Positions 8,312-31,546 of a DNA stretch of 32,000 nt are shown in pieces. The position numbers were made by a program, and so were the translations under genes. Position 1 is the stretch's first letter. Every line of letters begins with the position of its first letter. Source of the stretch: Sulfolobus acidocaldarius DSM 639 (lineage in GTDB: Archaea > Thermoproteota > Thermoprotei_A > Sulfolobales > Sulfolobaceae); NCBI RefSeq assembly GCF_000012285.1, contig NC_007181.1, positions 270,001 to 302,000 on the forward strand, given 5' to 3'. A model generated the notes under the pieces. The model did no database searches, was not told the DNA's origin, and was given only the letters and a program-made list of their open reading frames with translations.

Positions 8312-8370
8312 AATATACTTTATATCAAATAAGATAAAAAAACTTAAGTTATAAAAAAGTAATGATTCGT

Positions 8371-9282
8371 TTACATGTATCTCTTTAACACTGACATAGG
8401 GTTAGTTATATTAGCTACTAATAGGGTTTCCTCAGGGCTATGACCAAAGGCAAAAGCTAGGAGTTGTGAAAAGTAGGCTAAAGGCATTTCTAAATCTTTT
8501 CCATACTTTTCAGCAATCTTTCTCATATTTGTCTCAATGGCTACATGACCCAATGGACAATCGGTAACTAAAACCTCTGCACCATTCCTTCTAGCCTCCT
8601 TTAATATTCTAGCCTCAAGGTGCATAGCCACCTCTACGTCGGAATATACATGTGGACCTCCACAACACATAGTCTTAGCTTCAAATGGAACAACTTCAGC
8701 GCCTATAGCCTTAAGTATCTCGTCCATAAAGAATGGTCTCTCCGGGTCGTCCTTCAGTGGAGCCATACCCGTGAGTAAGTATTGCTTGGGTCTCGAATAT
8801 AGGCATCCATAATATGGAGCAACCTTCAGTCCTGTCAATGGTCTCTTGACCTTCGCCTTGACTCCCTCTATTCCTACAGTATTATATACGTATTCAACTG
8901 CGTGAATTAACATAAGTTTAAGATCATACTTGACCGTACCCATCTTCTCTAAATAATTATTAGCCTTCTCTCTGACCTTAGGATATTTTGACATGTAGTA
9001 TTGAGCCCTTGATAGGGAGTAGTGACAGCCCGGACAGGCAGAAACTACTGCGTCTGCACCCATCTCTCTAGCTAAAGAGAGATTTCTAGCAGGTAATAAT
9101 AGACCAGCCATAGTGTTTACATTCTTTACCTCCAAAGCTCCACAACAATTGTAGTCCTCAATTCTGTCTAAAGGTATTCCTAGATCTTGTGCCACTAACT
9201 TAAGTGAAACCTCATATGTCTTTCCTAAACCGTCTAATGCACAACCTGGGTAAAAGGCTATTTTACCATATGGATTACTCAT
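8371..9282 (-). CDS. hdrB2: sulfur-oxidising heterodisulfide reductase-like subunit HdrB2
   Basis: 303 aa with two CCG-type Cys-rich domains (FYPGC...YNCCGA and YYGC...TMCCGGPH). An ATGA overlap (9279-9282) joins it to hdrC2. Confidence 0.9.
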
Positions 9283-9971
9283 TCAGGAACCACCTCCTCT
9301 TTCATTGCTTCCTCTAATACCTCCTTGATTTTATCCCAATTTTTCACTCTATTGGGTTTTAGGACATCACCGACTAGTTTACCTTTCAACATTGCAGCAC
9401 CAATCGATATTAAGTCCTTTATACCTAAGGTAACCATTCCTGCTTTCGATGCAGCCATTCCCAATGTTAACTCTGATATCCTACCTCCATTTCTCATAAC
9501 TGTCTCCAGGAAGAGTTCATCAAATATAGTTCCAGGATCCTTTTTAACTAAGTTATGCTTTAAGAAGTAATTATGTATCGAGTGAACGACCTCTTCTACC
9601 ATGACTCCTTTAGGACATCTATGGGTACATTTTTGACATGAGACACATCTCCATAGCGAATCCTGTAGTTGGATCAAAGCTTGCTTGTCCCCTTTTCTCG
9701 CTAAATCAATAAACTTCCTCGGTCCAAAATCTGGGTCGTATTCTCTCATAGTACAACCGGAAGTGCATGTACCACATTGCCAACAAGCACTTATTGTCAC
9801 TCCCTCTAAGGTATTTGCAACTTCGTCCCATATACTGGGGTCATAGCCAGTCTGAGTTGTTTCTACCATAAATGCATTCCATGTTCCGTCTACCTCCACT
9901 CCGTCAACTATTACTTTCTCTTTTTGAATAACTCCCTTTACTATAGGTTTTTCAGATTCAGGAATTGGCAA
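9279..9971 (-). CDS. hdrC2: heterodisulfide reductase-like subunit HdrC2 (2x[4Fe-4S])
   Basis: 230 aa with two ferredoxin-type motifs, [11 protein letters not shown] and [12 protein letters not shown]. It sits between the hyp gene and hdrB2. Confidence 0.9.
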
Positions 9972-10641
9972 CTTTTATCACCTTAAGAAAGGATTTTAAC
10001 CCTAAAACCATAGCTGTAGTAGAGAGATGAGGAGGATAGAGACCTCCTCCCTTTCTATCCACAGCTAAAAGGGTTGCATAATCAACATAACGCACGTATG
10101 CATATACCAAAAAAATAGAAGTTGAAAAATAATTATTAGTGTCCAGACCGAAAACTGATAAGATCTCTCTAAGCTCCTTCAGAGCCTCAAAATAATCATC
10201 CTTACTGTTAAGCTTTACATTGTCCATTAGTACATATGTAATTGAACCTGTGTTCTTCTTATCATTCCAGATCCACCTAGTCCATAAAGGATATTGTTCA
10301 GGCTCCAAGAAATGAATTATCTCCCTAGCCATATCCAATATATCCTCAGGTTCTTCACTTACCAGGGAGGAAAACAGCTTTAACCTCTCTGAGTAATCTA
10401 AACTTGTATCTTTCAATTTATTGTAAGCTTCCCTTATTCTACCTATTCCATTCTTTTCCAAAACATAATTAAAGTGTTTCCTAGCATAAAACACACTATC
10501 GAATAATTGTCTAACATCGTGCTCAGAATTTATGTTCAGTGATCTAAGGAACTTGGTCTTCTCCTCCATAGCCATTATTATCGCTTTTAACGATTCTTTC
10601 GGATTTAATTTTGCGGTGTTTGTAACCTCCTTGGCTAACAT
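9958..10641 (-). CDS. conserved hypothetical protein of hdr-like clusters (hyp)
   Basis: 227 aa with no recognisable cofactor motif. It occupies the position between hdrA and hdrC2 that a conserved hypothetical gene holds in described sHdr clusters. It overlaps hdrC2 by 14 nt. Confidence 0.65.
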
Positions 10642-10684
10642 ACCATTGTATATATCTCTAACGTAATCTACGCTCAGTAACTTG

Positions 10685-11782
10685 CTAATGATGTATCACC
10701 TGTTGCATCTTACCAAAATTAGACTCCTCCCAAACACCACTGGTAACATATTGATATGCCTTTAAAGCTGCTGCATAGCCCTCAGTTATTGAGTCCGATA
10801 TCCCCTTAGGTCCTGTTATTGCTCCAGCTAAGAATACACCTTTTCTCGTGGACTGTACGGGCAACCTGTCGGGATCAAGAGGTTTCACAAAACCGTGTTC
10901 CTCTAGCTCGAGACCAAGAACTTTAGCTACTTGCTTGGATCCTAAACCTAACTCCATTCCGTTAGCTAATATAACCATATCATATGGTACAACTAATGCC
11001 CTGTTCAAATTCATTGTATCTTCTCCCTTTATTATTACGGTATCATTAGGACCTCTCATGAATTCAGAAATCCTACCTCTTATGAACCCAACCCTGTAAT
11101 CCAATTGTGCCTTCCAATACAGCTTATCCTCCATAAGTCCATATGTCCTTATATCCATGTAATAGATGTGGACAATTGCATCAGGTATTCTCTGCTTTAT
11201 CTCCATTGCCTGTTTAATTGATATTGCACAACAGACTCTCGAGCAGTAAGTATTCCCAACAGTAGCATCTCTGGAACCAACACATAATAATATTGCTACT
11301 CTTTTTGGAGGTGTACCTTTTGTAGTGACCAGTTTGTTCTCGTGGAGCATACCCTCTATATCAGATATCTGGTATATGTTGGGAATCAATCCATACCCAT
11401 ACTCGTACTTCCTCCTAGAGTCAAAATGCTCAAACCCTGAGGCGGCTATTATTGCATTAACCTTCTCGGTCTTTAGGTTTCCCTTCTTATCCTTTATACC
11501 AACCTCGAATCCATCAGAAACGTTTTTCATATTCTCAATTATACTCTCTGTTAGAACTCTTACATTACCATTCTCTTCTACACTTTTCACTAGAGGGTCA
11601 AGAACCTCAGATGCAGGTCTTAATTCAGGAAATAGAAGACTGTATTTCAACTTTTTAGGCGTACCGCCGAGATAGGACTCCCTCTCCACTAATATTAAAT
11701 CAACTCCCATTCTACTTAATTCCTTAGCTGCTGAGAGACCCGCTGGTCCTGCTCCAACAACCAGAACCGATTTATTCACCAT
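10685..11782 (-). CDS. hdrA: heterodisulfide reductase-like flavoprotein HdrA (short sHdrA type)
   Basis: 365 aa. It has the FAD dinucleotide fold VLVVGAGPAGLSAA and the HdrA Fe-S signature LCVGSRD...YCSRVCC. Confidence 0.9.
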   Translation of the reverse strand: MVNKSVLVVGAGPAGLSAAKELSRMGVDLILVERESYLGGTPKKLKYSLLFPELRPASEVLDPLVKSVEENGNVRVLTESIIENMKNVSDGFEVGIKDKKGNLKTEKVNAIIAASGFEHFDSRRKYEYGYGLIPNIYQISDIEGMLHENKLVTTKGTPPKRVAILLCVGSRDATVGNTYCSRVCCAISIKQAMEIKQRIPDAIVHIYYMDIRTYGLMEDKLYWKAQLDYRVGFIRGRISEFMRGPNDTVIIKGEDTMNLNRALVVPYDMVILANGMELGLGSKQVAKVLGLELEEHGFVKPLDPDRLPVQSTRKGVFLAGAITGPKGISDSITEGYAAALKAYQYVTSGVWEESNFGKMQQVIHH

Positions 11783-11836
11783 CTTTCCACCTTATGATAT
11801 AAAGTTAAATAAAATTTTAAATAAAAACTTTTGTTA

Positions 11837-13153
11837 TTACTTTTGCTGGGACTTATACCATTTAACTCTATCAGGCAGTGTCAGATAGAAGTCAATTTTT
11901 CTATGTTTTGGATATAGGTATTGGGTTTCTTCCTTTCCTTCCCTTAAATCGTGTAAGTACTGCAGGAACTTCTCTTTGTGGTCATCAACTGGTACACCTA
12001 TTTTCCTCAAAAATCCCTCCACGTCCGTTGCATGCCAATGTATCTGGGCAATAGTATAGGGATCAGCTCCCATAGCAAGAGCGACAAACTGCGCATCTGC
12101 TAATACTGGTAAATTATAATTGACTCCATGTGCCTTACCTACCCACTGACTCTTATCTAAAGTTGTCACACATCCTGTATCAGAGGTTACGAAGACATCT
12201 GCATGACCCTCCTCTACAGCAGGTATAACTTTCTTGAATAAAGCAAAGCTTCTGGTAAACTCCCTTTCAGTCAAAATATGTCTGAAACCAAATCCACAGC
12301 AATCCCACCACGTAGAATAATCTACTAATTTGGCACCTAGATTCTTTACTGTGCCTGAAGGAGCTGCAGGTCTTCTTCCCTGGTAAACTTCAGGGTCATA
12401 TATTGTATCCTCTGGTACTAACTTGTAGATATGGCATGGTGTGTGGACAGCAGCCTTGACTCCCTCTAGGTTATATTTCTTTTGCTGTGCAGCTTTCTTG
12501 CTCATAACATACATCCATTCTGAGTAGTGGACTACTTCCTCTGGTACAACTATATCCATGTCTAGTTTTCTCATTATTGGTCTCAGTTTCTCCCTTATTT
12601 CACTGTGTAGTATTATCATGTTCCTCATTTCCTTATAGTGCCCAAACGAGGTACCACAATGTATTAGAGGGAAATAGTCTGTTTCATAAGCCCTCCACAT
12701 ATTTCTAACATAAACACCTGCTAATGCGACAGGATTAGACGCACCAGATGCGTGATAGTTCCAACCTGTACATGAAGTCTGATGAGGTTCGTCTAAATAA
12801 TCAATCTCAAGTTTATTCATGATCCAAAAGACTGAGGTCGGGTAACCAGGGATATGACCACACTGACCACAGCTTTTATGATGCCATAACTTTGTTGTCG
12901 GAATCTTTTTAGGAAGACCATTTAAGGACTGATATTCTACAGGGTTATACATGGGTTTAACGTGATGGACTAGTATCTCACCCTTATCCTCCAGCTTATA
13001 TAACTCCTCCTTAACGTGCTGGAGACCATGAGGTGTACTGTACTTGTAAATTATCCTCTGATAGACATCCTCCCAATCCACCTGGTCAGCCATAGGAAAT
13101 GCTTCCTTTATAGCCTCGTCAAGCTTCTTCTCCTGCTCTTTATTCATACTCAT
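11837..13153 (-). CDS. hdrB1: heterodisulfide reductase-like subunit HdrB1
   Basis: 438 aa. It is Cys-rich, with CGQCGH and the CCG-type motif WWDCCGFGFRH. It is the first gene of the hdrB1-A-hyp-C2-B2 operon and has a palindromic TATA-like box about 24 nt upstream. Confidence 0.85.
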   Translation of the reverse strand: MSMNKEQEKKLDEAIKEAFPMADQVDWEDVYQRIIYKYSTPHGLQHVKEELYKLEDKGEILVHHVKPMYNPVEYQSLNGLPKKIPTTKLWHHKSCGQCGHIPGYPTSVFWIMNKLEIDYLDEPHQTSCTGWNYHASGASNPVALAGVYVRNMWRAYETDYFPLIHCGTSFGHYKEMRNMIILHSEIREKLRPIMRKLDMDIVVPEEVVHYSEWMYVMSKKAAQQKKYNLEGVKAAVHTPCHIYKLVPEDTIYDPEVYQGRRPAAPSGTVKNLGAKLVDYSTWWDCCGFGFRHILTEREFTRSFALFKKVIPAVEEGHADVFVTSDTGCVTTLDKSQWVGKAHGVNYNLPVLADAQFVALAMGADPYTIAQIHWHATDVEGFLRKIGVPVDDHKEKFLQYLHDLREGKEETQYLYPKHRKIDFYLTLPDRVKWYKSQQK

Positions 13154-13915: not shown

Positions 13916-15073
13916 TTGGCTAAAAGGATAATTGTAGCAGGAGGAAATATAGGAGGCACAATAATAGCAAATAGGCTAGCCCAAAAATTAGACCATGAAC
14001 TTCATAAAGGAGAAGTGGAAATTGTAGTTCTAAACAAGAACGACGATCATATTTACTACCCCGGACAATTGTTATTAGCCTATGGTCTTGAGACTCCACC
14101 AGAATTAATGAAAAAAGAAAGCGAGCTACTGGACCATAGAATTAAGTTTATACACGGTGAGAAAGGGACTATAACAAAATTTGACCCAGCGAACCACTCT
14201 GTAGTAACTGCAGATGGTGTTTCACACAGTTACGACTACTTAGTGATAACAACCGGAGTAGAGTACAGTTGGGATGAGATACCAGGCTATAGGGCTGGAT
14301 CAGTTAACTTTTATGAATATGAAGATGCCCTGAAGATGAGAGAAGCACTAAACAATTTCCAGGGAGGAACAATCGTAGTTAATACAGCAAGATTACCCCA
14401 CAGATGCCCTGTTGCACCCTTAGAGAACACATTAGTCCTTGATGATTACTTAAGAAAGAGGGGAATAAGGGACAAGACTAAAATTATTTACACATACCCA
14501 GTTCAGGGAGTGTTTGGAAGACCAATAACTAACAAATTCATGCTAAAGTTATTTGAAGAGAGAGGTATTGAAGTGCATTCACCATTCACTGTAACAAATG
14601 TAAACCCAACTGAGAAGATAATTGAGTCTCAAGAAGGAGGTAAGCTGAAGTACGATCTGCTAATTGCAATTCCACCAAATATGGGAGCAAAAGTCGTAGG
14701 AGATTCAGGATTGGGTGACAGGAGGAGATGGCTACCAACTGATAAGTTCACCCTGAGAATGAAAGACCATTCTAATGTATATGTAATGGGAGATGCTACC
14801 GATTTACCCGTATCTAAGGCAGGCTCCACTGCAGACTTTGAATCTTATGTCGTATCCCATAACATAGCGAACGACATTAAAGGTAATTTAGGTATGAAGC
14901 ACTACGGAGGAGATGTACTCTGTTATATAGCAACTGGAACTGATCAAGCAACCTACATTAGGTTTAGTTATACCATGAACGAGAGTCCTCCACCCCCATC
15001 CTACATCCACTGGTGGGGGAAGATAATGTACAATAAATTATACTGGACTGTAACAGCCAAGGCAGTGGTATAA
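13916..15073 (+). CDS. sulfide:quinone oxidoreductase-like FAD-dependent pyridine nucleotide-disulfide oxidoreductase
   Basis: 385 aa with a TTG start 7 nt after a perfect GAGGTGAT Shine-Dalgarno site. The N-terminal FAD fold is [15 protein letters not shown]. Cys residues sit in SQR-like contexts ([22 protein letters not shown]). Confidence 0.7.
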
Positions 15074-15074
15074 A

Positions 15075-15455
15075 ATGAAACTAGGGATAATAGTGGGTAC
15101 TAATGAGAGATCAAGGTTAACATATGCAGCAATGAACTCTGTAATATCCTCATCTATGGGAGACGAAGTATTCGTATTCTTGACAATGGATTCAGTAAGG
15201 GCTTTCACAAAAAACCCTGAAGTTAAAGACTCAGATGTTTCATCAAAAACAATGGTTGAAAAGAAAGATGAGGACTTTACAGGGCTCTTCAAAAAGGCAA
15301 AGAAGAGCGGAAAGGTGAAGATTTATGCTTGCTCTTACGCCAGCAAGCTGTTTAACTATAGTAAAGCAGATTACAATGACCTTGTAGACGAAATAGCGGG
15401 AATAACTACGTTCATGATGGATGTAGAAGGGGGACAAGTTATCTCAGTGTGGTGA
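15075..15455 (+). CDS. DsrE3-like DsrE/DsrF-family sulfurtransferase paralogue
   Basis: 126 aa and colinear with DsrE3A in this window (KLGIIVGTNE.. vs KLSIIVFSGT..; KIYACSYASKLF vs KVYACSTTMEFF; C-terminus DVEGGQVISVW vs RAEGGITLFI). The Cys is conserved. It starts 1 nt after the SQR-like stop. Confidence 0.65.
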   Translation: MKLGIIVGTNERSRLTYAAMNSVISSSMGDEVFVFLTMDSVRAFTKNPEVKDSDVSSKTMVEKKDEDFTGLFKKAKKSGKVKIYACSYASKLFNYSKADYNDLVDEIAGITTFMMDVEGGQVISVW

Positions 15456-15460
15456 AGGTA

Positions 15461-16381
15461 ATGCAAGACCTAAATCTAGATAAGATTTTTTCTAAATTAG
15501 ACCAAAAGAGAATTGATGCACTATCTGAATTGGTAGAACTGACACCAACACTAACTGAATTACTTAAGAAACTTGATGAGTTGAAAGAATCAGGAACATT
15601 GGACGCATTAATAAATTATGCGTATATAGGGAAAACAATGAAGGATATGCTAAACGATGATGCTCTTCAAAACCTCAGCAACACGGTCTCCAGTCTATTA
15701 GAGCTTACTAAGGTTCTGTCAAGACCTGATACATTCCATAATACTATGAGGTTAATGAACAATATAGACGCATTGGCTGATGTTACAAGTAAATTGAGGA
15801 CCATGAAAGAGGATGGAACACTAGATGTACTTATGAACACTGCCTACACCATTAGAACATTCAGAGACATGCTCAATGATGAAGCTCTAGCCAACATTTC
15901 AAGGTATACGTCCAACCTGTTAGAGATTTTGAGGGAAATGGATGATAACTCAGTAAGATCGTTGAAGAGCATATTAAGAAGGGCTAAGACCATAGACGGC
16001 TTAATGGTCAGATTAGAAGAACTTGAAAACTCAGGAGCATTAGATGTGTTATTAAACCTAGCCTATGCAGGGAAAACAATGAAGGATATGCTAAACGATG
16101 ATGCGTTAGCTGAGATAGGGAAATATCTCTCACAGTTCCTAGAGGCTTATCCAAGAGTTATGGGATTACTAAATAGTGTGACAGATGGAAACGGTCTCGT
16201 CTCGAGAATGATGAATGCAATGAAATCAGAGGACGTTAGAAAGGCTTTAGAATCTCCTCCCAAAGTGTCTATTAGTGGTTTGATTAAGCAGTTATCAGAC
16301 CCTGAGGTACAAGTAGGTCTTGGAGTATTATTCTCGGTAATTAAAGCGATAGGAAAAGAATTCTCAAGTCATAACAAGTAA
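15461..16381 (+). CDS. DUF1641-family protein with three tandem ~72-aa helical repeats
   Basis: The ATG at 15461 is preceded by GGTGA (15451-15455); the track ORF begins at a GTG at 15449. There are three repeats of the type L(K/E)ESGTLDALINYAYIGKTMKDMLNDDAL. The C-terminal DUF1641 motif is LSDPEVQVGLGVLFSVIKAIG. Confidence 0.7.
   Translation: MQDLNLDKIFSKLDQKRIDALSELVELTPTLTELLKKLDELKESGTLDALINYAYIGKTMKDMLNDDALQNLSNTVSSLLELTKVLSRPDTFHNTMRLMNNIDALADVTSKLRTMKEDGTLDVLMNTAYTIRTFRDMLNDEALANISRYTSNLLEILREMDDNSVRSLKSILRRAKTIDGLMVRLEELENSGALDVLLNLAYAGKTMKDMLNDDALAEIGKYLSQFLEAYPRVMGLLNSVTDGNGLVSRMMNAMKSEDVRKALESPPKVSISGLIKQLSDPEVQVGLGVLFSVIKAIGKEFSSHNK
15628..15663 (+). repeat. 36-nt perfect direct repeat, copy 1 (intragenic, in-frame)
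   Basis: The sequence agggaaaacaatgaaggatatgctaaacgatgatgc is identical to 16069-16104, which is 441 nt (147 codons) downstream. It encodes GKTMKDMLNDDA in repeat units 1 and 3 of the DUF1641 protein. Confidence 0.9.
16069..16104 (+). repeat. 36-nt perfect direct repeat, copy 2
   Basis: Identical to 15628-15663 by direct reading of the sequence. Confidence 0.9.
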
Positions 16382-18699: not shown

Positions 18700-20034
18700 A
18701 TGGAATATGATGTAGTGGTAGTAGGAGGAGGAACTGCAGGATATATTGCAGGAAGTATATTAGCAAGGAAAGGTAAAAAGGTACTGGTAACGGAGAGGGA
18801 AAGATTTGGAGGAGTTTGCGTAAATTACGGCTGTGTCCCAAGTATATTTTTTTATGATGTAACCTATTTTCTAAACAGAGGAAAGGAAATAGGAAATTAT
18901 CTTGGTATCGAGATAGAGACAAAGGAAAGCAAAAGATTTTTCCTAAGGAGAGACGAGCTTGTTTCTTACCTATCAGACGCAGGTAAAAGGCTGATAGAAA
19001 ATGCAGGTGGAGACACTGAGATTGGTGAAACAAGGATATTAACAAATAATAGGGTTAAAGTAAATGGTAAGGAAATTGACTTTAAGAGAATAATTATAGC
19101 CTCTGGTACAAAACCATTGAAACCTGAAATACAGGGTATAGAGAATGCAATAAGTGAAGATGAAGCAGTCAGACTGAACTATATACCTAGTTCTGTAGTT
19201 ATAATTGGTGGAGGATTTGCAGGCATAGAGTTAGCCCAATACTTTTCTCGACTAAACTCGAATGTCACATTAATCACCAGAGGAAAAATCCTCAGGACAT
19301 TTCCTGAAGATGCAGTTAACTTTTTGAGACAGTCTTTAGAATTTGACGGTGTAAAGTTAATTGAAAACACAAGAGTCACTAATATCTCGAAAAGGATAGT
19401 TGAAACAAATAAGGGAAATTTTGAGGGAGAAGTTGTAGTGTATGCGACGGGGAGAGAACCAGATTTACCAAAGGGAATTGAGAATATTAAAGTAATCACA
19501 GGTAAAAACGGAGTAATAACCAATGAAAGGCTTAGGGCTGGAGAAAATGTTTATGCAGTAGGAGACGTGGTAGATAAAGCGAATAAGACTGCGCATTCAG
19601 CCATGCTTGATGCCATCATATGCTCTATGGATATTCTTGGTATAGCTCATGCTAACGTAAAAGGTATTAAAATACCCAGAGTGCTTTACACAGACCCTCA
19701 AATAGGTGTCATAGGTGATATAAATGACGCAGTGAAGTTCGGATATTTCCCATTTAATGCATCAACCAGAGCGATAATTAGTGGAAACAGAGAAGGATAT
19801 GTGAAGATAGGAATAAACGAGAAAAATGAGATAGTTTTTGGGGAGGTCATTGGAGAAAAGGCAGAGGAGTTGATAAATATATTAACGTTGGCTGTGAACA
19901 GTAAAATGACCGTGGAACAACTTTCACTAATTCCCTTCGTTCATCCTTCTTTATCTGAAGCCATATTAAATTCAGCAAAGAGTTTTTTTGACCTAGACGT
20001 TGATAGATATAAGGAGAATAATGACTTTAAATGA
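18700..20034 (+). CDS. class I pyridine nucleotide-disulfide oxidoreductase (dihydrolipoamide dehydrogenase / glutathione reductase family)
   Basis: 444 aa. It has an FAD fold (YDVVVVGGGTAGY), the redox-active disulfide GGVCVNYGCVPS (Cys40/Cys45), a second dinucleotide fold (VVIIGGGFAGIE) and the C-terminal His-Glu motif FVHPSLSEA. The strand after the second fold reads VTLITRGKILRTF (R-x4-R, as in glutathione reductase) rather than the DLD-type acidic residue. It starts 6 nt after the dsrE2 stop. Confidence 0.8.
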   Translation: MEYDVVVVGGGTAGYIAGSILARKGKKVLVTERERFGGVCVNYGCVPSIFFYDVTYFLNRGKEIGNYLGIEIETKESKRFFLRRDELVSYLSDAGKRLIENAGGDTEIGETRILTNNRVKVNGKEIDFKRIIIASGTKPLKPEIQGIENAISEDEAVRLNYIPSSVVIIGGGFAGIELAQYFSRLNSNVTLITRGKILRTFPEDAVNFLRQSLEFDGVKLIENTRVTNISKRIVETNKGNFEGEVVVYATGREPDLPKGIENIKVITGKNGVITNERLRAGENVYAVGDVVDKANKTAHSAMLDAIICSMDILGIAHANVKGIKIPRVLYTDPQIGVIGDINDAVKFGYFPFNASTRAIISGNREGYVKIGINEKNEIVFGEVIGEKAEELINILTLAVNSKMTVEQLSLIPFVHPSLSEAILNSAKSFFDLDVDRYKENNDFK

Positions 20035-20362
20035 TTATATTAGAAAAAGAGGGCTCTCATTAGTCACAGACGGTAACACAAAGAAGATCCTTCTTGACGA
20101 TTATGAAATAAGAATAGAAGAGAGAAGAGTTATATTGCCTATACCCTTACCAACTGGAAAAGAGACTCTAGACGATCTCTTATCCATGGGAATAAAATAC
20201 GCTAGAGCCTCAAGAATATCTCAATTACTAGGCTCACCTTTGGAGTACTCAATTGAAGGAAATACTGTGTTTGTCATAAAGAAGTTTGAAAGCGAGAAGA
20301 GTCTTGAAGATTCACTTATTAAGGCATTAGACGGAATAGAGGGATTGAGGTACTTCTTATGA
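20021..20362 (+). CDS. hypothetical protein
   Basis: 113 aa from the ATG at 20021, which is preceded by aaggag; the track ORF starts at a TTG at 20000. It overlaps the 3' end of the upstream reductase gene and is ATGA-coupled to the downstream thioredoxin-fold gene. No recognisable motifs. Confidence 0.4.
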   Translation: MTLNDYIRKRGLSLVTDGNTKKILLDDYEIRIEERRVILPIPLPTGKETLDDLLSMGIKYARASRISQLLGSPLEYSIEGNTVFVIKKFESEKSLEDSLIKALDGIEGLRYFL

Positions 20363-20910
20363 GTTACGATAATATAATTAGAGAATACACAAGGGCAATT
20401 AAATCAAATATCACAATATATTATTGTGACGGAGAGGAGTTAATCAACTATCTGAAGGATGTGGTAGTAACTAAGCAATTGGAGGAGTGCCAAAAGCCTC
20501 TCATTAAGGTTCAAAAGGACAATAGAACATACTTTACTTATTATGGTATACCCACCGCCAATGAGTTATGGCCCTTTTTAAATGCACTAGCGAGAATATC
20601 TAATGATATAGTTCAACTCGACCAAAAGGAGATTGAATTAGCAAAAGGGATTAGAGGAAATATTAAACTATTTGTAACTCCAGATTGTACTAAATGCCCA
20701 ATAACCGCAGAATTTCTTTACCAGTTAGTTCAGATTAATCCAGACGTAACCCTAGAGATCTTTGACGTAACCGAGTATGAATACGAGAAGGAAAAATACA
20801 GGGTCTTAAGTGTACCAAAGATTGTATTCAACGAGAGGACTGAGATTCCTGGAGGGTTTCCTAGTACTATCATCCTCAAGATGATGATAAAAGCTCTTGA
20901 GAAGACATAA
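20359..20910 (+). CDS. thioredoxin-fold protein, PDO/glutaredoxin-like, single C-terminal CxxC (CTKC)
   Basis: 183 aa. The C-terminal half (IKLFVTPDCTKCPITAEFL ... LSVPKIVFN ... IPGGFP) resembles a thioredoxin-like domain. The N-terminal half is of similar length without CxxC, recalling the two-unit architecture of archaeal protein disulfide oxidoreductases. TGAGGT precedes the ATG. Confidence 0.6.
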   Translation: MSYDNIIREYTRAIKSNITIYYCDGEELINYLKDVVVTKQLEECQKPLIKVQKDNRTYFTYYGIPTANELWPFLNALARISNDIVQLDQKEIELAKGIRGNIKLFVTPDCTKCPITAEFLYQLVQINPDVTLEIFDVTEYEYEKEKYRVLSVPKIVFNERTEIPGGFPSTIILKMMIKALEKT

Positions 20911-21247
20911 CCCTTACCCCAAGATCTAACGCTTTCTTTTTAACGTCATCATTATCAGTTACAAGAAGGGCATTTAGCTCTACAGCAACCATTATCGCCT
21001 CGGACTCATAATCTGGTATACCTTCAATCTTAGGTGGTTTATGTGAAAAGGATCTCACTATTGCACCGTTATCCAATGCAATGTCTATGTTTACATGATT
21101 TCTCAACGCAAATGAAACTCCTAAAGTAGTGATTATTAGTTTATTTTCCCTGCCAAGGGACTTAAGGATTTCTTCTAATTTCTGAAAGGAGCTAGGTGAT
21201 ATAACTACATACATATATACTATATTCTCTAAGTGGGATTTATACAT
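20876..21247 (-). CDS. hypothetical protein, weak PIN-like (DUF3368/COG2405-like) resemblance
   Basis: 123 aa; the start could instead be the internal Met at 21214. The C-terminal segment YESEAIMVAVELNALLVTDNDDVKKKALDLGVRV resembles PIN-like nucleic-acid-binding proteins, but the N-terminal acidic residue is not evident. It is the last gene in the slpl-lipS operon direction. Confidence 0.3.
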   Translation of the reverse strand: MYKSHLENIVYMYVVISPSSFQKLEEILKSLGRENKLIITTLGVSFALRNHVNIDIALDNGAIVRSFSHKPPKIEGIPDYESEAIMVAVELNALLVTDNDDVKKKALDLGVRVMSSQELLSSS

Positions 21248-22092: not shown

Positions 22093-23148
22093 CTAATTCA
22101 ACAATTTTTTGATTAGGACCTCTAGCTTACTCTGTTTTATTGCCTTTCTAGTGACTTCAAGGTCAGGATATAGTGGAATATTCTTCAGTACACCACCAGG
22201 TCTTTCATTTGAGTAAGGTCTGTTACAACCTGGACAACCACTGGTCATAAATGCGGGAGCTAACTCCTCAACAGTGAGATCACTAGGAATTTCTATATCC
22301 ACTAGCTTACCTTCCTCATTAAATTTAAATGAGTCATATTTCACTAAATCATTCTCTATAAGCCATCTGGAAACTTGCATCCTTCGATAAACGTCTATTG
22401 GTACTGGTTTTCTCTTTTCCATAGGAGTACCACTTTCAGGATAAAATGCGAACAGTGATATTTTGGCTCCTCTGGAATGGGCGTACCACATAAGATGTAT
22501 AGCATCCCTTTCAGTTTCTCCTAAACCTACAATCAAGTGAATACCAGCGTTCTTCTTGCCAAAAACCTCTACAGCCTCATCTATTGCCTGAATGTATCTA
22601 TCCCATGAATGCATGCTCCTAACCAGTTTCCCCCTAACCTGGTCAAAAAGTTCCTTATTAGCTGCATCAATTGCCACATCTATCATATTAGCTCCAGCCC
22701 TCTTCATTTCAATCATATGCCTCTTATACGTATAAGTTGCTGTAACTAGTTCTGATATCTGTAATTCTATTCCAGCCTCTCTAATTCTCCTTGTAATCTC
22801 TATGGCATCAGGAGAAGCTCTAGGATGAGCCAACTGACCTACACATATTCTTTGAAGACCGTATCTAATGTCGCCTTGTCTATCCTTTATTCTCTTGATG
22901 ACCTCATCTAAAGGTCTCAAAGGCCATTCTACCCTTATCAATGTCTTACACTCTGGACCCTGTGCGACCTCCCTTGCTTGTCCACAGTAAGAGCAATTTG
23001 CCTTACAACCGTCTGGATAGTATTGGAGTAGGTTAATGGTTGTATTTAGAACGTTGTTAAAAAATACTCCCGGAGAGAATCCTAGGACTATGTCTGCACC
23101 GAAGCTTAATCTCACCCAATCAGGACTTGAAACTAAACGAAGAGTCAT
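22093..23148 (-). CDS. BioB-like radical SAM protein, LipS1/LipS2-type lipoyl synthase component
   Basis: The radical-SAM motif is CKANCSYCGQA, with the BioB-like LIVGLGETERD and C-terminal Cys SGCPGCN. The preferred start is the ATG at 23148 (MTLRLVSS...), which forms an ATGA overlap with the upstream gene; the track ORF extends to 23190. I cannot tell LipS1 from LipS2 by eye. Confidence 0.8.
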   Translation of the reverse strand: MTLRLVSSPDWVRLSFGADIVLGFSPGVFFNNVLNTTINLLQYYPDGCKANCSYCGQAREVAQGPECKTLIRVEWPLRPLDEVIKRIKDRQGDIRYGLQRICVGQLAHPRASPDAIEITRRIREAGIELQISELVTATYTYKRHMIEMKRAGANMIDVAIDAANKELFDQVRGKLVRSMHSWDRYIQAIDEAVEVFGKKNAGIHLIVGLGETERDAIHLMWYAHSRGAKISLFAFYPESGTPMEKRKPVPIDVYRRMQVSRWLIENDLVKYDSFKFNEEGKLVDIEIPSDLTVEELAPAFMTSGCPGCNRPYSNERPGGVLKNIPLYPDLEVTRKAIKQSKLEVLIKKLLN

Positions 23149-24050
23149 GAAACACCACCTGAAATTATATCGAGAACAACATTTCCGCAACAGGCATTAC
23201 TAAGAAAAACTTTTCTCTTTGACATTGCATACTCATATGTTTCCTCCTCAGGGAATGCGATTGCATCTATATCGTAGTCCACAGCAAACGTCTCCACCTT
23301 TACATAATCTTTACCTCGCGGTCGTGCACAGCCCAGGTTTATAGGTATATTACTAAATGTATCCCTAGCAAATCTTAGGGCAGTAATGAGTTCCTCAGGA
23401 GATGGCTGGTTTCCATTGTACATGGGTGTCCCAAGTAATGGCATTAACCCAACAATAATTATGGCGTCCGGTTCAACCTCTTTTAGTAATCTTATAGCCT
23501 CTAAATCACCTTTGATACCTTTTGTACTTAGACCAACTATGACATGAGGCACTATCTTAATTCCAGCCTGTTTAAGATATTTAAAGGAGTTCAGATAATC
23601 GTCTACCGTAAATGGTTGCCTCAGAACTTCTTTAATAGTTGTGTTATCTGAGACCATATCAAGTAAAGCCACCTTAACACCAGCTTCCTTGAGCTTAACT
23701 GCTATATCTTGGCTCCTTACCACCCCGGTATGGGCTATGATTGTAAGCTTATCCGCGTACTTGGAAATAACGTGTCCGTATTTCCATAAAGGAACGTCTC
23801 CTCTGATCGTAGAGCCACCTGAGAGTATTATCCCCTTATCTCCTGCCTTAACAGCTCTTTCTAGTTCCCTTGTGAGCTTCTCTTCACTAGACCCATCTAT
23901 CATAGTCTCTAAAACCCTTCTACCACAATGTTTACAATTAAAGGCACAATATTTACCTGTGACAGAAATGGACTTCCATCCATTACTAGAAGAGATAAAA
24001 TCAGTCTCATACCTTTTCAAATTAGGAGCGTAAATAAACAGTGGTCTCAT
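23145..24050 (-). CDS. radical SAM protein, LipS1/LipS2-type lipoyl synthase component
   Basis: The radical-SAM motif is CAFNCKHCGRR, with extra Cys at NLGCARP and SNACCGN. The preferred start is the ATG at 24050 (MRPLFIYAP...), which forms an ATGA overlap with the ligase gene stop; the track ORF extends to 24122. Confidence 0.8.
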   Translation of the reverse strand: MRPLFIYAPNLKRYETDFISSSNGWKSISVTGKYCAFNCKHCGRRVLETMIDGSSEEKLTRELERAVKAGDKGIILSGGSTIRGDVPLWKYGHVISKYADKLTIIAHTGVVRSQDIAVKLKEAGVKVALLDMVSDNTTIKEVLRQPFTVDDYLNSFKYLKQAGIKIVPHVIVGLSTKGIKGDLEAIRLLKEVEPDAIIIVGLMPLLGTPMYNGNQPSPEELITALRFARDTFSNIPINLGCARPRGKDYVKVETFAVDYDIDAIAFPEEETYEYAMSKRKVFLSNACCGNVVLDIISGGVS

Positions 24051-25081
24051 TTTAACGCCTCCTTCATTAAGTTTATTAGATCTTCTTGCGTAATCCCCAA
24101 TATCTTTACATTCTTGTACCATTCCTTGATCTCATTATCTATATCCTCTACTCTACTCCATTTCAGCCTTGCCTCTAAGTCATAGATTGCAGTCCTAGGT
24201 TCCACAAAGAAGTCTCCTGTAATAAGCACAGACTGAATTAGATTCTCTCCAGCCAATTTAATCTGCACTTTTACTAGACCTCCAGGGAGCTTCCTTTCTA
24301 AATACCTAATGTTGTCACCCTCTAACGGCTTTCTCATACCGAATATCCACTCAGGGGATGAGTACTTCCTAGCCAACCTATTTATGGTCTCAGTTTCTTC
24401 CTTATGGTAAGTAGATTCTTTTAACTCAACTCCCAAGGCTTCAGAAAATCCCTCCTTGGCTATTTTTATTAAGTCCACCATATCTATACTAGAAGTTAAC
24501 TCCTTGTTAATCCATGTTAATCTGTCCTTAAAGTCCTTAGACAGTTTATCCTTTAATTTCTCAGATGTCAACTTAAGCACTGATACCATTGCATCGACAT
24601 CAAAGTCTAAGAGAATTGTACCAGTGACACCCATATATCTTCCCTCCGAGAATGCACCTATCCCAGATATTTTTCTCCCTTTAATTTCTACATCATTTTT
24701 TGGTCTGAAATTTGCACTTATACCTAATTTTCCCAGTGTCCTTATTACACCCTCTGCACCTAGTCTCATGGCATTATCTGGAGTCTCTCCCAGGAGACTT
24801 TTGTCTGCATAAATTTCCCATCCTAATTGCCACGGTCCCATTATTATAGTCCCGCCTCCTGTGGGTCTCCTACCAACATCCCAATTCTTACGGCGCACTT
24901 CCTCTAGATTTACCTCCTGCTCAACTGTTTGATGATATCCTATTAGGACAGCTGGAGGGTCAAATATGACGAACCTGAGCACAGGACTACTTCCAGAGGC
25001 TACAGATAACAGAAGTGCTTCCTCGCCTGCAAGAATATAGTCTTGACTATTTCTTTCGACAATAAATCTGAATTCTCTCAT
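24047..25081 (-). CDS. lipoate-protein ligase, fused LplA+LplB type (sLpl(AB)-like)
   Basis: 344 aa. LplA-family motifs are RRPTGGGTIIMGP and GRKISGIGAF (catalytic Lys context), followed by a C-terminal accessory domain in the same polypeptide. It is the first gene of the operon with the two radical-SAM genes. Confidence 0.85.
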   Translation of the reverse strand: MREFRFIVERNSQDYILAGEEALLLSVASGSSPVLRFVIFDPPAVLIGYHQTVEQEVNLEEVRRKNWDVGRRPTGGGTIIMGPWQLGWEIYADKSLLGETPDNAMRLGAEGVIRTLGKLGISANFRPKNDVEIKGRKISGIGAFSEGRYMGVTGTILLDFDVDAMVSVLKLTSEKLKDKLSKDFKDRLTWINKELTSSIDMVDLIKIAKEGFSEALGVELKESTYHKEETETINRLARKYSSPEWIFGMRKPLEGDNIRYLERKLPGGLVKVQIKLAGENLIQSVLITGDFFVEPRTAIYDLEARLKWSRVEDIDNEIKEWYKNVKILGITQEDLINLMKEALK

Positions 25082-25102: not shown

Positions 25103-25113
25103 AAATATAAAAA
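25103..25113 (-). promoter_or_regulatory. TATA-like box for slpl-lipS operon
   Basis: An A/T box (aaatataaaaa on the plus strand) is centred about 27 nt upstream of the ATG at 25081, consistent with a leaderless transcript. Confidence 0.35.
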
Positions 25114-25432: not shown

Positions 25433-25783
25433 TCAGTACCATAAACCCCTCTTCATACTATCTAACTTGGTATATAGAGCTATCTGGAGGTATCTAAATA
25501 CCTCAATTGTAAATTTAACTGCAGTGTCTTCATCATAGGAATTTAATTTAGAAATGAGCTCTGTTATCATCCTACTCATATCGTTCATAGTGGTCTTCTC
25601 CATATCGTATTGGTTCAACTGAAGAATCTCGAGTATTTCGCTTTTAGTCTTAGCCTGTTTTAGCCTTTGATATATCTTGATTACGACTCCCTCTTTCTCT
25701 TTTCCAAAAAGAGCATCTTGAGGATTCCTGAGCCATCTAGCATAGGTAGCTGCTAACCTCTTTGCCTCATTCTCTATGGACAT
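25433..25783 (-). CDS. hypothetical protein
   Basis: 116-aa ORF, predicted helical, with no recognisable motif. It lies 19 nt downstream of the 164-aa ORF on the same strand. Confidence 0.4.
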   Translation of the reverse strand: MSIENEAKRLAATYARWLRNPQDALFGKEKEGVVIKIYQRLKQAKTKSEILEILQLNQYDMEKTTMNDMSRMITELISKLNSYDEDTAVKFTIEVFRYLQIALYTKLDSMKRGLWY

Positions 25784-25802
25784 GATTTTATTTTCATCAC
25801 AG

Positions 25803-26297
25803 TTAAATAAAAATTTTCAATCTCTTCAACGAGCCTAGTGCGCTTAGCAGGTCATTTGACATAATAAAAGGGGAATATTTAGAGCAATCATAGTATCTGT
25901 TCACACAAACTACTTTTATCCTTGAATCAAAAAACCTGGCTGAAAGTAAATCTAGGGGCGAAGAACCAATCATAACGACGTCTAAGGGATCCCATTCAGT
26001 TATTTTAAATAAGATCTCAAAAGGCTCCTTCGAAGGCTTCGTTTTTCCAGTATTCGAAACTACATACAATGGGCTTACATTTATCCTCTTAAGCAATTCA
26101 TCTGTTGTGACAGAATCGTAGGGGGATAAAACTGCAAGCTTGTCCTTAACTTGTTCGTACAATGTATGCCAGTCCTCATAAACCTCATAAGTTATAGGTA
26201 AGCTCATAGTACGTTCTCCCTTGTAGACTTTGTATAGGTGATCTGTTAGGTCGATCTTCAGTATTACGCCGTCTAACCAAACTGCAAAATGTACCAT
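25803..26297 (-). CDS. hypothetical protein, weak HAD-like resemblance with nucleophile Asp missing
   Basis: 164 aa. The N-terminal FAVWLDGVIL compares with HAD motif I (FDxDGTL), with the first Asp replaced. The later VVMIGSSPLDLLSA compares with the GDSxxD motif. It is divergent from lbpA across only 39 bp. Confidence 0.35.
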   Translation of the reverse strand: MVHFAVWLDGVILKIDLTDHLYKVYKGERTMSLPITYEVYEDWHTLYEQVKDKLAVLSPYDSVTTDELLKRINVSPLYVVSNTGKTKPSKEPFEILFKITEWDPLDVVMIGSSPLDLLSARFFDSRIKVVCVNRYYDCSKYSPFIMSNDLLSALGSLKRLKIFI

Positions 26298-26336: not shown

Positions 26337-26777
26337 ATGAAAATTTCATTTTTCAATTTCCCAGACGATCTATTGTATGAACCTGAGAGACATGTGTGGA
26401 TTAAGGTCGAGGAAAATAAGGTTGTAAGTGTGGGCATGACCGATCTAGGGCAGTACCTTGCAGGAAAGATATTCCAAGTGTCTGTCCCTAGAAGGGTAGG
26501 AGAAAGGGTCAACAATAGAACCATACTGTTCTCAGTAGAAAGTGCAAAGTGGATAGGAAAAATAAGATTGCAAATAGAAGGTGAGGTGGTAGATATTAAT
26601 GAACGGGTTATAAAAAACCCATCAATAATTAATGAAGATCCATATGGAAGTTGGATTATTAAAGTCTCAGTTACTGACGTAGATCTTGTTAAGAGAGCAT
26701 TTAAGAACATACAAGATTGTAGAAGCCAATTTGAGGAGGAAGCAAATAGGATTGTGTCATGGAAAAATAGTTCCTGA
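26337..26777 (+). CDS. lbpA: GcvH-like lipoate-binding protein LbpA (copy 1)
   Basis: 146 aa with a GcvH fold signature: VGMTDLGQ, the lipoyl-Lys context VESAKWIG (Lys71, codon 26547-26549), EGEVVDINE and EDPYGSWIIKV. Confidence 0.85.
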   Translation: MKISFFNFPDDLLYEPERHVWIKVEENKVVSVGMTDLGQYLAGKIFQVSVPRRVGERVNNRTILFSVESAKWIGKIRLQIEGEVVDINERVIKNPSIINEDPYGSWIIKVSVTDVDLVKRAFKNIQDCRSQFEEEANRIVSWKNSS

Positions 26778-30073: not shown

Positions 30074-30883
30074 TCAGAACGGAGAGGAGGTAGACTCTGG
30101 GCTCTGCTTCATTGTTTTAAATTCATAATCATATATTATCATGACATCTGAATCCTTATCAACCTCTCTGGCGCCATTAATATACTTCTTAGCTCCTTCC
30201 ACATTATCAGCATAACAAACAGTTATTCCAGCATAACCATCAGTAAATTGCCACAATTTACATTCCTGTAAAACGGGTGATATGTCCTCAATTCTCTTAG
30301 AGAACATGGAGAATATAACTATGTCTGCCCTTCCTAGATTAATTTCTGGCACTATCAAAATCATCCCTCTGAATCTCATATGCCTGATATGTTTTTCTAT
30401 AACTCTAGTGTTGATGCCTAACTTTTTAGAAATTTCCGAAGAAGCTAGCCTAGGGTCTTCCTTCAACATTTCAACAATCTTCTTATCTAAACTTGAGGGT
30501 TTGAGCTTATACTGAACAGGTAAATAAGTTAACACAGGATCTCCCAGTTCCTTACGCATATACTCTATCCTATCCTTTAACTCAGTTTGACTTGAACCAT
30601 ATATGCCGTAGACATTAAGCCATTCTAGACATCTTAGCTTAAAGGAAATCCAATCAGCGTCTATCTCCTTGTAATTCTTAAAGGCAATATACAGTTGATA
30701 TTGACCATAAAAGTTAGGGTTAATATATAACTTAAATCCCTTTAAAATATTGCTATCTATAAGTTTTCGGAACCTATAATTTAAACTTGCAGGCGTCAAG
30801 TTAAGCAGACTTGCTATTCTTCTCTGTGATATTCTGCCATCTTTGAGAAAAAATGAAAGAATTCTCTTATCTACTATATCCAT
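30074..30883 (-). CDS. Lrp/AsnC-type transcriptional regulator with two winged-HTH modules
   Basis: 269 aa with two AsnC-type HTH segments: DIVDKRILSFFLKDGRISQRRIASLLNLTPASLNYRFRKL and LDKKIVEMLKEDPRLASSEISKKLGINTRVIEKHIRHM. Confidence 0.8.
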   Translation of the reverse strand: MDIVDKRILSFFLKDGRISQRRIASLLNLTPASLNYRFRKLIDSNILKGFKLYINPNFYGQYQLYIAFKNYKEIDADWISFKLRCLEWLNVYGIYGSSQTELKDRIEYMRKELGDPVLTYLPVQYKLKPSSLDKKIVEMLKEDPRLASSEISKKLGINTRVIEKHIRHMRFRGMILIVPEINLGRADIVIFSMFSKRIEDISPVLQECKLWQFTDGYAGITVCYADNVEGAKKYINGAREVDKDSDVMIIYDYEFKTMKQSPESTSSPF

Positions 30884-31186: not shown

Positions 31187-31546
31187 ATGGTAAAGTACAC
31201 CTTCAAATGTGCGGATGTAGGAATGGACTGCGGATTCGAAATAGTTAATGCTGGAAGTGAAGACGAACTGTTAGAAGCACTTAAATCCCACGCAAAAATG
31301 TCACATGGACTAACATCAATACCACCTGATCTAGTAAACAAAATAAAGCAAAACATAAAGAAGAGCGGAAAATACTATTTCGCCTGTAGCAGTGTTGGAA
31401 TGGACTGCGGATTTGAAATAAAGGCAGCATCTTCAGAACAAGAGTTATTAGAAGAGCTCATGGCTCATGCAAAGATGTCACACGGACTAACATCAATACC
31501 ACAAGATACCCTAAACAAGATAAAACAAAATATCAAAGTAATGTAA
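31187..31546 (+). CDS. tandem double DUF1059-domain protein
   Basis: 119 aa with two copies of the module: YTFKCADVGMDCGFEIVNAGSEDELLEALKSHAKMSHGLTSIPPDLVNKIKQNIKK and YYFACSSVGMDCGFEIKAASSEQELLEELMAHAKMSHGLTSIPQDTLNKIKQNIK. The copies are also similar at DNA level (ggaatggactgcggatt[c/t]gaaata; atgtcaca[t/c]ggactaacatcaataccac). Confidence 0.7.
   Translation: MVKYTFKCADVGMDCGFEIVNAGSEDELLEALKSHAKMSHGLTSIPPDLVNKIKQNIKKSGKYYFACSSVGMDCGFEIKAASSEQELLEELMAHAKMSHGLTSIPQDTLNKIKQNIKVM

Follow-up and report, generated by a model that had tools for sequence, protein, structure and literature searches.

Which proteins assemble lipoate at a locus where a lipoate:protein ligase gene is chained to two radical S-adenosylmethionine (SAM) genes, and does such a locus hold more than the pathway already described? 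We examined this question in Sulfolobus acidocaldarius DSM 639, using a stretch of 32,000 nucleotides (nt) of its genome (NC_007181.1, positions 270,001 to 302,000; hereafter the window, whose own numbering is used throughout). A sequence-only reading of the window had proposed a three-gene operon that encodes a fused ligase and a two-component LipS1/LipS2 lipoyl synthase. Our analysis indicates that the locus is very probably a four-gene lipoate-assembly operon situated inside the sulfur-oxidising sHdr-LbpA cluster of Sulfolobaceae; the fourth gene encodes a protein of the DUF8155 family (PF26482). The three-gene core is an ordinary, somewhat divergent Sulfolobaceae example of a published pathway and by itself matters little, and the remaining interest lies in the fourth gene.

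The ligase and lipS1 genes meet at ...GCG TTA AAA TGA, where the TGA of the ligase gene (24049–24047) overlaps the ATG at 24050–24048, and lipS1 and lipS2 meet at ...GGT GTT TCA TGA, where the TGA at 23147–23145 overlaps the ATG at 23148–23146. These ATGA overlaps (24047–24050 and 23145–23148) read exactly as the sequence-only reading had described them. The first ATG opens MRPLFIY... and its frame then reaches the motif CAFNCKHCG, and the second opens MTLRLVSS... and leads to CKANCSYCG. Starts at the overlaps yield proteins of 301 and 351 amino acids (aa), whereas the longest open reading frames (ORFs) would give 325 and 365 aa. The shorter starts are preferred because three lines of evidence agree. 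An independent pipeline called proteins of 344, 301, 351 and 277 aa on Logan contig SRR17206298_970, which carries an identical DUF8155 protein and the same gene order, and the Metallosphaera sedula orthologues have 4-nt overlaps at both junctions according to the coordinates in S5 Table of Tanabe et al. (2023, PMC10332631). The third line is junction conservation in our comparison set of 11 Sulfolobales genome loci, in which the ligase–lipS1 junction is intact in 10 and reads ATGA in 7 and GTGA in 3, with M-R-P next in each, while the lipS1–lipS2 junction reads ATGA in 5 and has a spacer of 0–1 nt in most of the others. The chained overlaps of the ligase, lipS1 and lipS2 genes are real and conserved. 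The chain does not end there: the lipS2/DUF8155 junction is TAG ATG, so that the DUF8155 gene starts at the base directly after the lipS2 stop codon, and the same gene directly follows lipS2 in all 11 loci, with a start −11 to +4 nt from the stop codon of lipS2. The proposed operon was correct in joining the ligase to both radical-SAM genes, but its coordinates stopped one gene short.

A TATA-like box lies upstream of the ligase gene, at a position that appears to fit a leaderless archaeal operon transcript. Its assignment is based on the promoter geometry of Sulfolobus.

Assignment by profile, which the sequence-only reading had suggested for each radical-SAM protein, supports LipS1 and LipS2 as their probable identities, distinct from BioB. 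The upstream protein matches the NCBIfam LipS1 profile (NF053742) with 199.7 bits over model positions 5–268 of 268, and the downstream protein matches LipS2 (NF053743) with 240.7 bits over positions 1–292 of 292. The predicted ligands of the iron–sulfur clusters were compared in sets of 28–30 homologues, 16–18 of which come from outside Sulfolobales. In LipS1, the radical-SAM motif C35-x3-C39-x2-C42 (Pfam Radical_SAM, 4e-13) is conserved in all 30 homologues, and the auxiliary ligands H169, C241 and C287-C288 are kept in 29–30 of them. In LipS2, C48/C52/C55 (CX3CX2C), C102 and C305-x2-C308 are present in all 28 homologues and H204 in 22. Mutagenesis of the Thermococcus kodakarensis enzymes identified C230, C276, C277 and H159 as ligands in LipS1 and C85, C276, C279 and H178 in LipS2 (Neti et al. 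2022, PMC9585515). Counted from the first radical-SAM cysteine, C241, C287/C288 and H169 of the window LipS1 stand at +206, +252/+253 and +134, and the corresponding T. kodakarensis offsets are +203, +249/+250 and +132. The ligands of the window LipS2 are likewise spaced as in the T. kodakarensis enzyme. LipS1 contains six cysteines in total (35, 39, 42, 241, 287 and 288) and LipS2 seven (48, 52, 55, 67, 102, 305 and 308); the LipA-type Cx4Cx5C motif was found in neither. The window LipS1 shares 66% identity with the Acd1 protein given by its coordinates as LipS1, the window LipS2 shares 75% with the one given as LipS2, and the hidden Markov model (HMM) of the same study labels the orthologues of the window LipS1 as LipS1 (Tanabe et al. 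2023, S5 Table, PMC10332631). Profile scores, auxiliary ligands and orthology to Acd1 therefore agree with the two-component lipoyl synthase that had been proposed.

The fused ligase was also recovered where the sequence-only reading had placed it. Its catalytic domain is clear (Pfam LplA-B_cat, 1e-38, 133.8 bits, residues 17–212), and a GRKISG motif is present. The C-terminal signal is marginal, though Pfam and NCBIfam are concordant: Lip_prot_lig_C covers residues 261–338 with 23.4 bits (gathering score, 24), and LplB (NF053749) covers residues 263–343 with 53 bits (cut-off, 65). The protein thus appears to combine an LplA catalytic domain and an LplB-type domain in one polypeptide. Its orthologues are LplA_735 of Acd1 and LplA_1635 of M. 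sedula, both of which Tanabe et al. place in lipS clusters (S5 Table, PMC10332631). A second fused ligase, which had been overlooked, is encoded elsewhere in the window; it shares 31% identity with the operon ligase, and its Acd1 orthologue is LplA_711, listed as sHdr-linked in the same table. The pair formed by lbpA2 and the second ligase gene lies inside the flanks of only some Sulfolobales loci (L001 and L006).

The DUF8155 family extends well beyond Sulfolobales. The close homologues of the window protein form 39 clusters with 44–64% identity, all from Sulfolobales or from unassigned metagenome sequences; the best named matches are from a Saccharolobus sp. metagenome-assembled genome and Sulfolobus tengchongensis (64%) and from Sulfolobus sp. 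B5 (63%), and the exact sequence was matched only in one Logan assembly (SRR17206298). The homologues are labelled as hypothetical, as DUF8155/PF26482 or, in three cases, with an automatic M23 or peptidoglycan-peptidase name. An exhaustive HMM search of a representative set yielded 178 distant relatives of approximately 300 aa, and a profile search yielded 285, with Halobacteria, Asgard archaea, Thermoplasmata and Sulfolobales as the named sources. A metagenome scan, based on a narrower alignment than the 37-sequence alignment described below, retrieved 272 relatives; 80 loci were retained from these.

Lipoylation genes recur around these relatives. Our own ORF calling and HMMs detected lplA/lplB and/or lipS1/lipS2 in the flanks of 40 of the 80 metagenome loci, in at least six gene orders that include lplA–DUF8155 overlaps of 7–8 nt. 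When the 99 genomic and metagenomic loci were clustered at 60% identity, 16 of the 27 clusters were linked, counting a haloarchaeal pair by its Pfam labels. An unbiased clustering of the ORFs within 4 kb at 88 non-Sulfolobales loci placed LplA at 42, LipS1 at 22 and LipS2 at 16 loci and the next family at only 7; by our own estimate, which is not a computed value, such a gene would be expected in a few percent at most of random 16-kb windows of a 2–3 Mb genome. Among individual loci, a hot-spring metagenome contig carries lpl, a split lipS1, lipS2 and DUF8155 (4-nt overlap) beside a second ligase and gcvH, and on another contig DUF8155 is 1 kb from an rSAM-rSAM-lplA-lplB array. In a Thermoplasmata genome, gcvH and a LipS1-like gene lie no more than 5.4 kb from DUF8155, and in two haloarchaea DUF8155 is 55 nt from a divergent gene for an LplA catalytic domain, a link taken from precomputed Pfam labels, as our own ligase HMM missed the short haloarchaeal gene. 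No lipoylation gene is linked to DUF8155 at the loci of a Lokiarchaeote, a Promethearchaeote and one other. Linkage of this kind, kept despite rearrangement and most often involving the ligase, is a classic signature of functional coupling.

Two further observations were made at these loci. In a hot-spring metagenome contig (JGI 3300010938; L012, 5984–6944), the lipS1 homologue upstream of lipS2–DUF8155 is split into 224 + 102 aa by the contig calls or 229 + 121 aa by our own, owing to a frameshift, pseudogenization or faulty assembly. At DUF8155 loci without lipS or lpl, a geranylgeranyl-reductase-like flavin adenine dinucleotide (FAD) protein is encoded adjacently or within approximately 4 kb (L014, 6268–9429; L013, 13129–14211), accompanied by a flavodoxin-like gene in the Lokiarchaeote, and a similar FAD protein occurs at the Thermoplasmata locus. 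The association may reflect a LipT-like link or be due to chance.

The N-terminal part of the DUF8155 protein has a recognizable fold. In the AlphaFold2 model (pLDDT, 91.9), Foldseek assigns approximately residues 1–125 to the M23/LytM fold with a probability of 1.0 (matches include SpoIIQ, pseudoalterin, LytM, LECT2 and ShyA), and a profile-to-PDB alignment places D28 on the zinc-site residue Asp39 of LECT2 and H114/H116 on H118/H120. In an alignment of 37 diverse members with a mean column identity of 28%, there is no variation at S16, H21, D28, G43, H82, G100 and H116 and almost none at H114 and E118; save for the first motif, H-x6-D, these residues correspond in sequence to the predicted M23 catalytic set. 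The beta-rich C-terminal half, modelled separately with a pLDDT of 85, had no fold match in the PDB and contains the motif GLGCCGG.

We found no mention of DUF8155 in the literature searched, although its absence there does not prove its absence from the literature. M23 is not mentioned in the papers found on lipoate ligase, archaea and lipoyl synthase, and the words 'peptidase' and 'hypothetical' occur nowhere in the main text of Tanabe et al. (PMC10332631).

The surroundings of the operon are those of a typical Sulfolobaceae sHdr cluster with the 'Group II' layout (hdrC1B1A-hyp-C2B2, dsrE3, dsrE, an lpd-like gene, two lbpA genes and TauE). Besides the features listed in the table, the window contains hdrC1, dsrE3, dsrE and an SQR/FCSD-like flavoprotein gene together with genes for DsrE and DUF1641 proteins. 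The Sulfolobaceae Group II layout has been described as having, close to hdr and lbpA, two radical-SAM genes together with a gene for an LplA-like ligase, and conserved terminal cysteines, as in the lbpA2 product, are typical of LbpA (Cao et al. 2018, PMC6067878). Of the 11 Sulfolobales loci, 9 have lbpA1 upstream of the ligase operon, and the lbpA1 product is a likely substrate of the operon.

Table. Positions of the lipoate-assembly operon and of related features in the window
Feature	Position	Strand	Evidence
Ligase gene, fused Lpl(AB)-type lipoate/octanoate:protein ligase, 344 aa	24047..25081	-	Pfam and NCBIfam domains, orthology
lipS1, radical-SAM lipoyl synthase subunit, 301 aa	23145..24050	-	NCBIfam profile, conserved ligands
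lipS2, radical-SAM lipoyl synthase subunit, 351 aa	22093..23148	-	NCBIfam profile, conserved ligands
DUF8155 gene (PF26482), fourth in operon, 277 aa	21259..22092	-	Start abuts lipS2 stop
TATA-like box TTTTTATAT	25105..25113	-	Read from sequence; centre ~27 nt upstream of ligase ATG
lbpA1, GcvH-like lipoate-binding protein, 146 aa, lipoyl-lysine K71 in VESAKW	26337..26777	+	Pfam GCV_H 3e-28
lbpA2, GcvH-like lipoate-binding protein, 149 aa, lipoyl-lysine K73 in LESGKW, terminal cysteines C7 and C145	26924..27373	+	Pfam GCV_H 7e-42
Second fused Lpl(AB)-type ligase, 365 aa	27373..28470	+	Pfam LplA-B_cat 2e-36 and Lip_prot_lig_C; start overlaps lbpA2 stop (TAATG)
TauE gene, hdrB2, hdrC2, hypothetical gene, hdrA, hdrB1	7460-13153		Pfam/NCBIfam
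Dihydrolipoamide-dehydrogenase-like (Lpd-like) flavoprotein, 444 aa	18700-20034	+	

Several observations weigh against the four-gene reading and bear on the alternatives to it. Both radical-SAM proteins miss the NCBI equivalog cut-offs (230 bits for LipS1 and 270 for LipS2), which we read as probable divergence of the Sulfolobales clade; the C-terminal domain of the ligase is just under its Pfam and NCBIfam thresholds; and S. acidocaldarius has LipA, unlike M. sedula and Acd1, for which neither LipA nor LipB is listed (S5 Table, PMC10332631). If the two radical-SAM genes encoded biotin synthase-type, BioB-like enzymes and the ligase were an unrelated, salvage-only enzyme, one might expect what is seen in two respects: the weak second-best NCBIfam match of both is BioB (TIGR00433; 36.3 bits for the upstream and 43.7 for the downstream protein, both below the cut-off of 225), and the best matches in a PDB sequence search, which found no solved LipS1 or LipS2 structure, are HydE and a biotin synthase (E-values of approximately 1e-4 and 3e-3). 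The LipS1 and LipS2 profiles, however, score five to six times higher in bits, and the auxiliary ligands specific to LipS proteins, the C-terminal CC in LipS1 and CxxC in LipS2, are present and conserved. The genes also overlap a lipoate ligase gene and neighbour genes for lipoate-binding proteins, and their orthologues have already been published as LipS1 and LipS2. The grouping with genuine biotin synthases that the sequence-only reading had named as a refutation is thus not seen by profile, and this alternative is effectively refuted. A second alternative is that the operon is not dedicated to LbpA but is a general lipoyl synthase system that serves GcvH and the E2 subunits of 2-oxoacid dehydrogenases, with the second ligase as the LbpA-specific enzyme. 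The existence of two paralogous fused ligases, the second of which overlaps the lbpA2 stop, would suit such a division of labour, as would the presence of the ligase-lipS1-lipS2-DUF8155 block even where the flanks lack the lbpA2–second-ligase pair. In addition, because M. sedula and Acd1 have no listed LipA or LipB, LipS1/LipS2 must lipoylate every target there. The location of the operon inside the sHdr/lbpA cluster, mostly beside lbpA1, points the other way, and bacterial sLpl(AB) ligases from such clusters are LbpA-specific (PMC6067878). Target specificity is not readable from sequence, and we consider the general role a serious contender whose chances fall somewhat short of even.

The remaining adverse points concern the fourth gene of the operon as we read it. 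Pfam M23 (PF01551) scores 22.5 bits on DUF8155, below its gathering score of 28.7; the first motif is H-x6-D and not the canonical HxxxD, so that H21 is only a putative metal ligand; the CC motif of Sulfolobales is not kept in the wider family; approximately half of the family loci, several of them with 8-kb flanks, have no lipoylation gene nearby; and the T. kodakarensis ligase, LipS1 and LipS2 suffice for lipoyl formation in vitro (PMC9585515), so that DUF8155 is not needed for the core chemistry. The last two points would also be expected if DUF8155 were a mere syntenic neighbour, either a cytoplasmic peptidase or a non-catalytic M23-like module of the SpoIIQ, EnvC or LECT2 kind, and the top Foldseek matches do include the non-catalytic SpoIIQ and LECT2. 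Such an explanation nevertheless has to accommodate a linkage that outlasts changes of gene order in Sulfolobales, haloarchaea, Thermoplasmata and uncultured lineages, neighbourhoods in which only lipoylation genes recur, and a DUF8155 start coupled to the stop of lipS2 or lplA in several lineages. Moreover, degenerate M23 domains usually lose their His/Asp set, which is invariant in DUF8155. We therefore regard the neighbour-only explanation as rather improbable. Comparative genomics makes it probable that DUF8155 is functionally tied to lipoylation, and the chances are about evenly balanced that it is an unrecognised, widely conserved archaeal lipoylation component, namely an M23-fold metalloenzyme that works with an LplA-type ligase and, in organisms that have them, with LipS1/LipS2. 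The fold, the invariant residues and the neighbourhood together suggest one specific role, that of a metal-dependent (zinc) amide hydrolase assisting the ligase by editing or release, but this is speculation and, stated so precisely, doubtful. More broadly, possible roles include an amidase that edits mis-acylated lysines, an amidase that salvages lipoate or octanoate, and the missing amidotransferase or octanoyl-supply function of Tanabe et al.; an editing role would resemble that of type II thioesterases in carrier-protein systems.

Two other roles for DUF8155 were considered and rejected. As an Fe-S or persulfide donor that regenerates the auxiliary clusters of the LipS proteins, the protein would depend on a CC pair that is confined to Sulfolobales and lost even there in one member (P0039); because GLGCCGG is not conserved outside Sulfolobales, sulfur or cluster donation is unlikely as a common function of the family. 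As a lipoyl carrier it would depend on K79, which is replaced by Arg in many relatives.

In the working that we propose for the four-gene operon, one leaderless transcript starting from the TATA-like box near position 25108 would encode all four proteins, and their translation would be coupled through the start/stop overlaps. By homology, the fused ligase would use ATP to activate free octanoate or lipoate and would then load the acyl group onto the lipoyl-lysine of the LbpA proteins encoded nearby, and perhaps of other lipoyl domains. The sulfur insertions would follow the order established for T. kodakarensis, in which the insertion at C8 by LipS2 precedes that at C6 by LipS1 (Neti et al. 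2022, PMC9585515). The radical-SAM [4Fe-4S] cluster of LipS2 would lead to hydrogen atom abstraction at C8, with the sulfur probably supplied by a sacrificial auxiliary [4Fe-4S] cluster on C102, C305, C308 and probably H204; LipS1 would repeat this chemistry at C6, with its auxiliary cluster on C241, C287, C288 and H169, and would complete the dithiolane. The probable electron source is a low-potential carrier of general use, such as ferredoxin, which is a guess from archaeal physiology. DUF8155, as a cytoplasmic M23-fold protein with putative metal-binding or catalytic His and Asp residues that do not vary between archaeal phyla, might act alongside the ligase as a zinc-dependent amide hydrolase; speculatively, its most likely task would be to clear lipoyl-lysines of incorrect or unproductive acyl groups or to liberate lipoate or octanoate so that it can be ligated again.

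Pfam and NCBIfam matches for all larger ORFs of the window included no other radical-SAM gene and no LipA, LipB or LipT-like flavoprotein, in line with the earlier statement that a LipA-type gene is lacking from the window. The only flavoproteins are HdrA-like, SQR/FCSD-like and Lpd-like, none of which adjoins lipS. The sequence-only reading had also noted the lack of a LipT-like flavoprotein beside the lipS genes and had left the electron donor open. The observation stands, but it is not specific to this locus: LipT is encoded in only 17% of the archaea that contain LipS1/S2 (Tanabe et al. 2023, PMC10332631), so that its absence is the rule in archaea and the open electron donor is a known general gap. 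The same authors pointed out that archaea lack acyl carrier protein (ACP) and that octanoyl supply is unresolved, and they flagged an 'unknown amidotransferase' or octanoyl-supply function as missing. DUF8155 is a concrete, testable candidate for this part of archaeal lipoate metabolism, be it octanoyl supply, editing, salvage or amidotransfer, as it has a predicted intact site of the metallohydrolase type and tracks lplA, lipS1 and lipS2 in at least four archaeal lineages. Since both Sulfolobales and haloarchaea have genetic systems, a DUF8155 knockout is feasible.

Other features of the window deserve brief mention. The Lpd-like gene belongs to a forward-strand trio (18700–20910) that also encodes a hypothetical protein of 120 aa and a two-domain thioredoxin-fold protein (Thioredoxin_17 and Thioredoxin_3). 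The trio stands beside dsrE/dsrE3/hdrC1 in 4 of the 11 Sulfolobales loci, and two further loci have all three genes with Lpd apart from hyp120-PDO. The link to Lpd is already in the literature; the thioredoxin-like partner may bear on the redox cycling of LbpA. Between lbpA1 and the ligase operon, genes for an HAD-like hydrolase (164 aa) and a 116-aa protein without a family (25433–26297, reverse strand) occupy a position that is the same in 7 of the 11 loci. The DUF8155 gene is followed after 11 nt, on the same strand, by a small PIN-like ORF (20876–21247, reverse strand), which probably starts internally, at MYVVISP..., after an AT-rich stretch. This ORF is probably outside the operon, because its homologue is 2–3 kb further away in other Sulfolobales loci. 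More distant genes include that for a 978-aa, formate-dehydrogenase-like molybdopterin oxidoreductase with N-terminal 2Fe-2S and 4Fe-4S domains (1192–5190, reverse strand), followed by genes for a DUF1641 protein and FdhD. The window encodes another DUF1641 protein (15449–16381), together with the SQR/FCSD-like flavoprotein and a DsrE protein (13916–15455). Two tandem DUF1059 domains (E-value, 9e-50) are encoded at 31187–31546 (forward strand), near an Lrp/AsnC-type regulator with a double winged helix-turn-helix (30074–30883). The GC content of the window is approximately 37%.

Comparison with published systems places the core of the operon on familiar ground. The sLpl(AB)-LipS1/S2 pathway has been established genetically and biochemically, and orthologous operons are tabulated for M. 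sedula (CP000682.1_1633-1635) and Acd1 (APJY01000001.1_735-737), including the second sHdr-linked ligase (Tanabe et al. 2023, S5 Table, PMC10332631). The novelty implied for the three-gene arrangement therefore does not hold, as it had already been published for Sulfolobaceae (Cao et al. 2018; Tanabe et al. 2023). The window shares with this pathway the same three enzymes, their domain architecture, the cluster ligands and the linkage to sHdr/lbpA (PMC6067878, PMC9585515, PMC10332631), and Hyphomicrobium denitrificans likewise has start/stop overlaps between genes, GTGA and ATGA (PMC10332631). The gene order differs, being ligase-lipS1-lipS2 in the window, lipS1-slpl(AB)-lipT-lipS2 in Proteobacteria and lipS2-lplA-lplB-lipS1 in many archaea; relative to the published clusters, the window lacks lipT, lipX and lipY but has the added DUF8155 gene. 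The Group II loci are direct orthologues (62–69% amino acid sequence identity for the ligase, 60–74% for LipS1 and 75–82% for LipS2 among the 11 Sulfolobales loci). The M. sedula and Acd1 operons have the same neighbours and the same second sHdr-linked ligase and differ from that of the window by lineage-level divergence only; the published tables for these two do not list the DUF8155 gene. The canonical LipB/LipA (or LipM/LipA) route leads to the same end product, and in both systems a radical-SAM enzyme inserts sulfur from a sacrificial auxiliary [4Fe-4S] cluster. LipA, however, is a single enzyme with Cx4Cx5C and RSSY motifs that acts at C6 first, whereas the window encodes two enzymes without those motifs that would, by homology, start at C8; the octanoyl group would be delivered by an ATP-dependent ligase in the window and is delivered by an ACP-dependent transferase in the canonical system.

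For the accessory genes, the bacterial lipS clusters offer two points of comparison. LipT, an FAD oxidoreductase, has no counterpart in the window. LipX is a GATase1-like accessory protein with a hydrolase/amidase-type fold, whose gene is joined to slpl(AB) by an ATGA overlap (PMC10332631). DUF8155 is placed like LipX on the archaeal side, an analogy of position only, with no relationship in sequence or fold. With M23 proteins (LytM, lysostaphin, LECT2 and SpoIIQ), the N-terminal domain of DUF8155 shares the fold, the HxH motif (H114-A-H116), the aligned Asp and the central H82. It departs from them in its H-x6-D motif and its sub-gathering Pfam score, in a C-terminal domain without a PDB fold match and in being a cytoplasmic protein of archaea, hosts that have no peptidoglycan, where its partner gene is that of a lipoate ligase instead of cell-wall genes.

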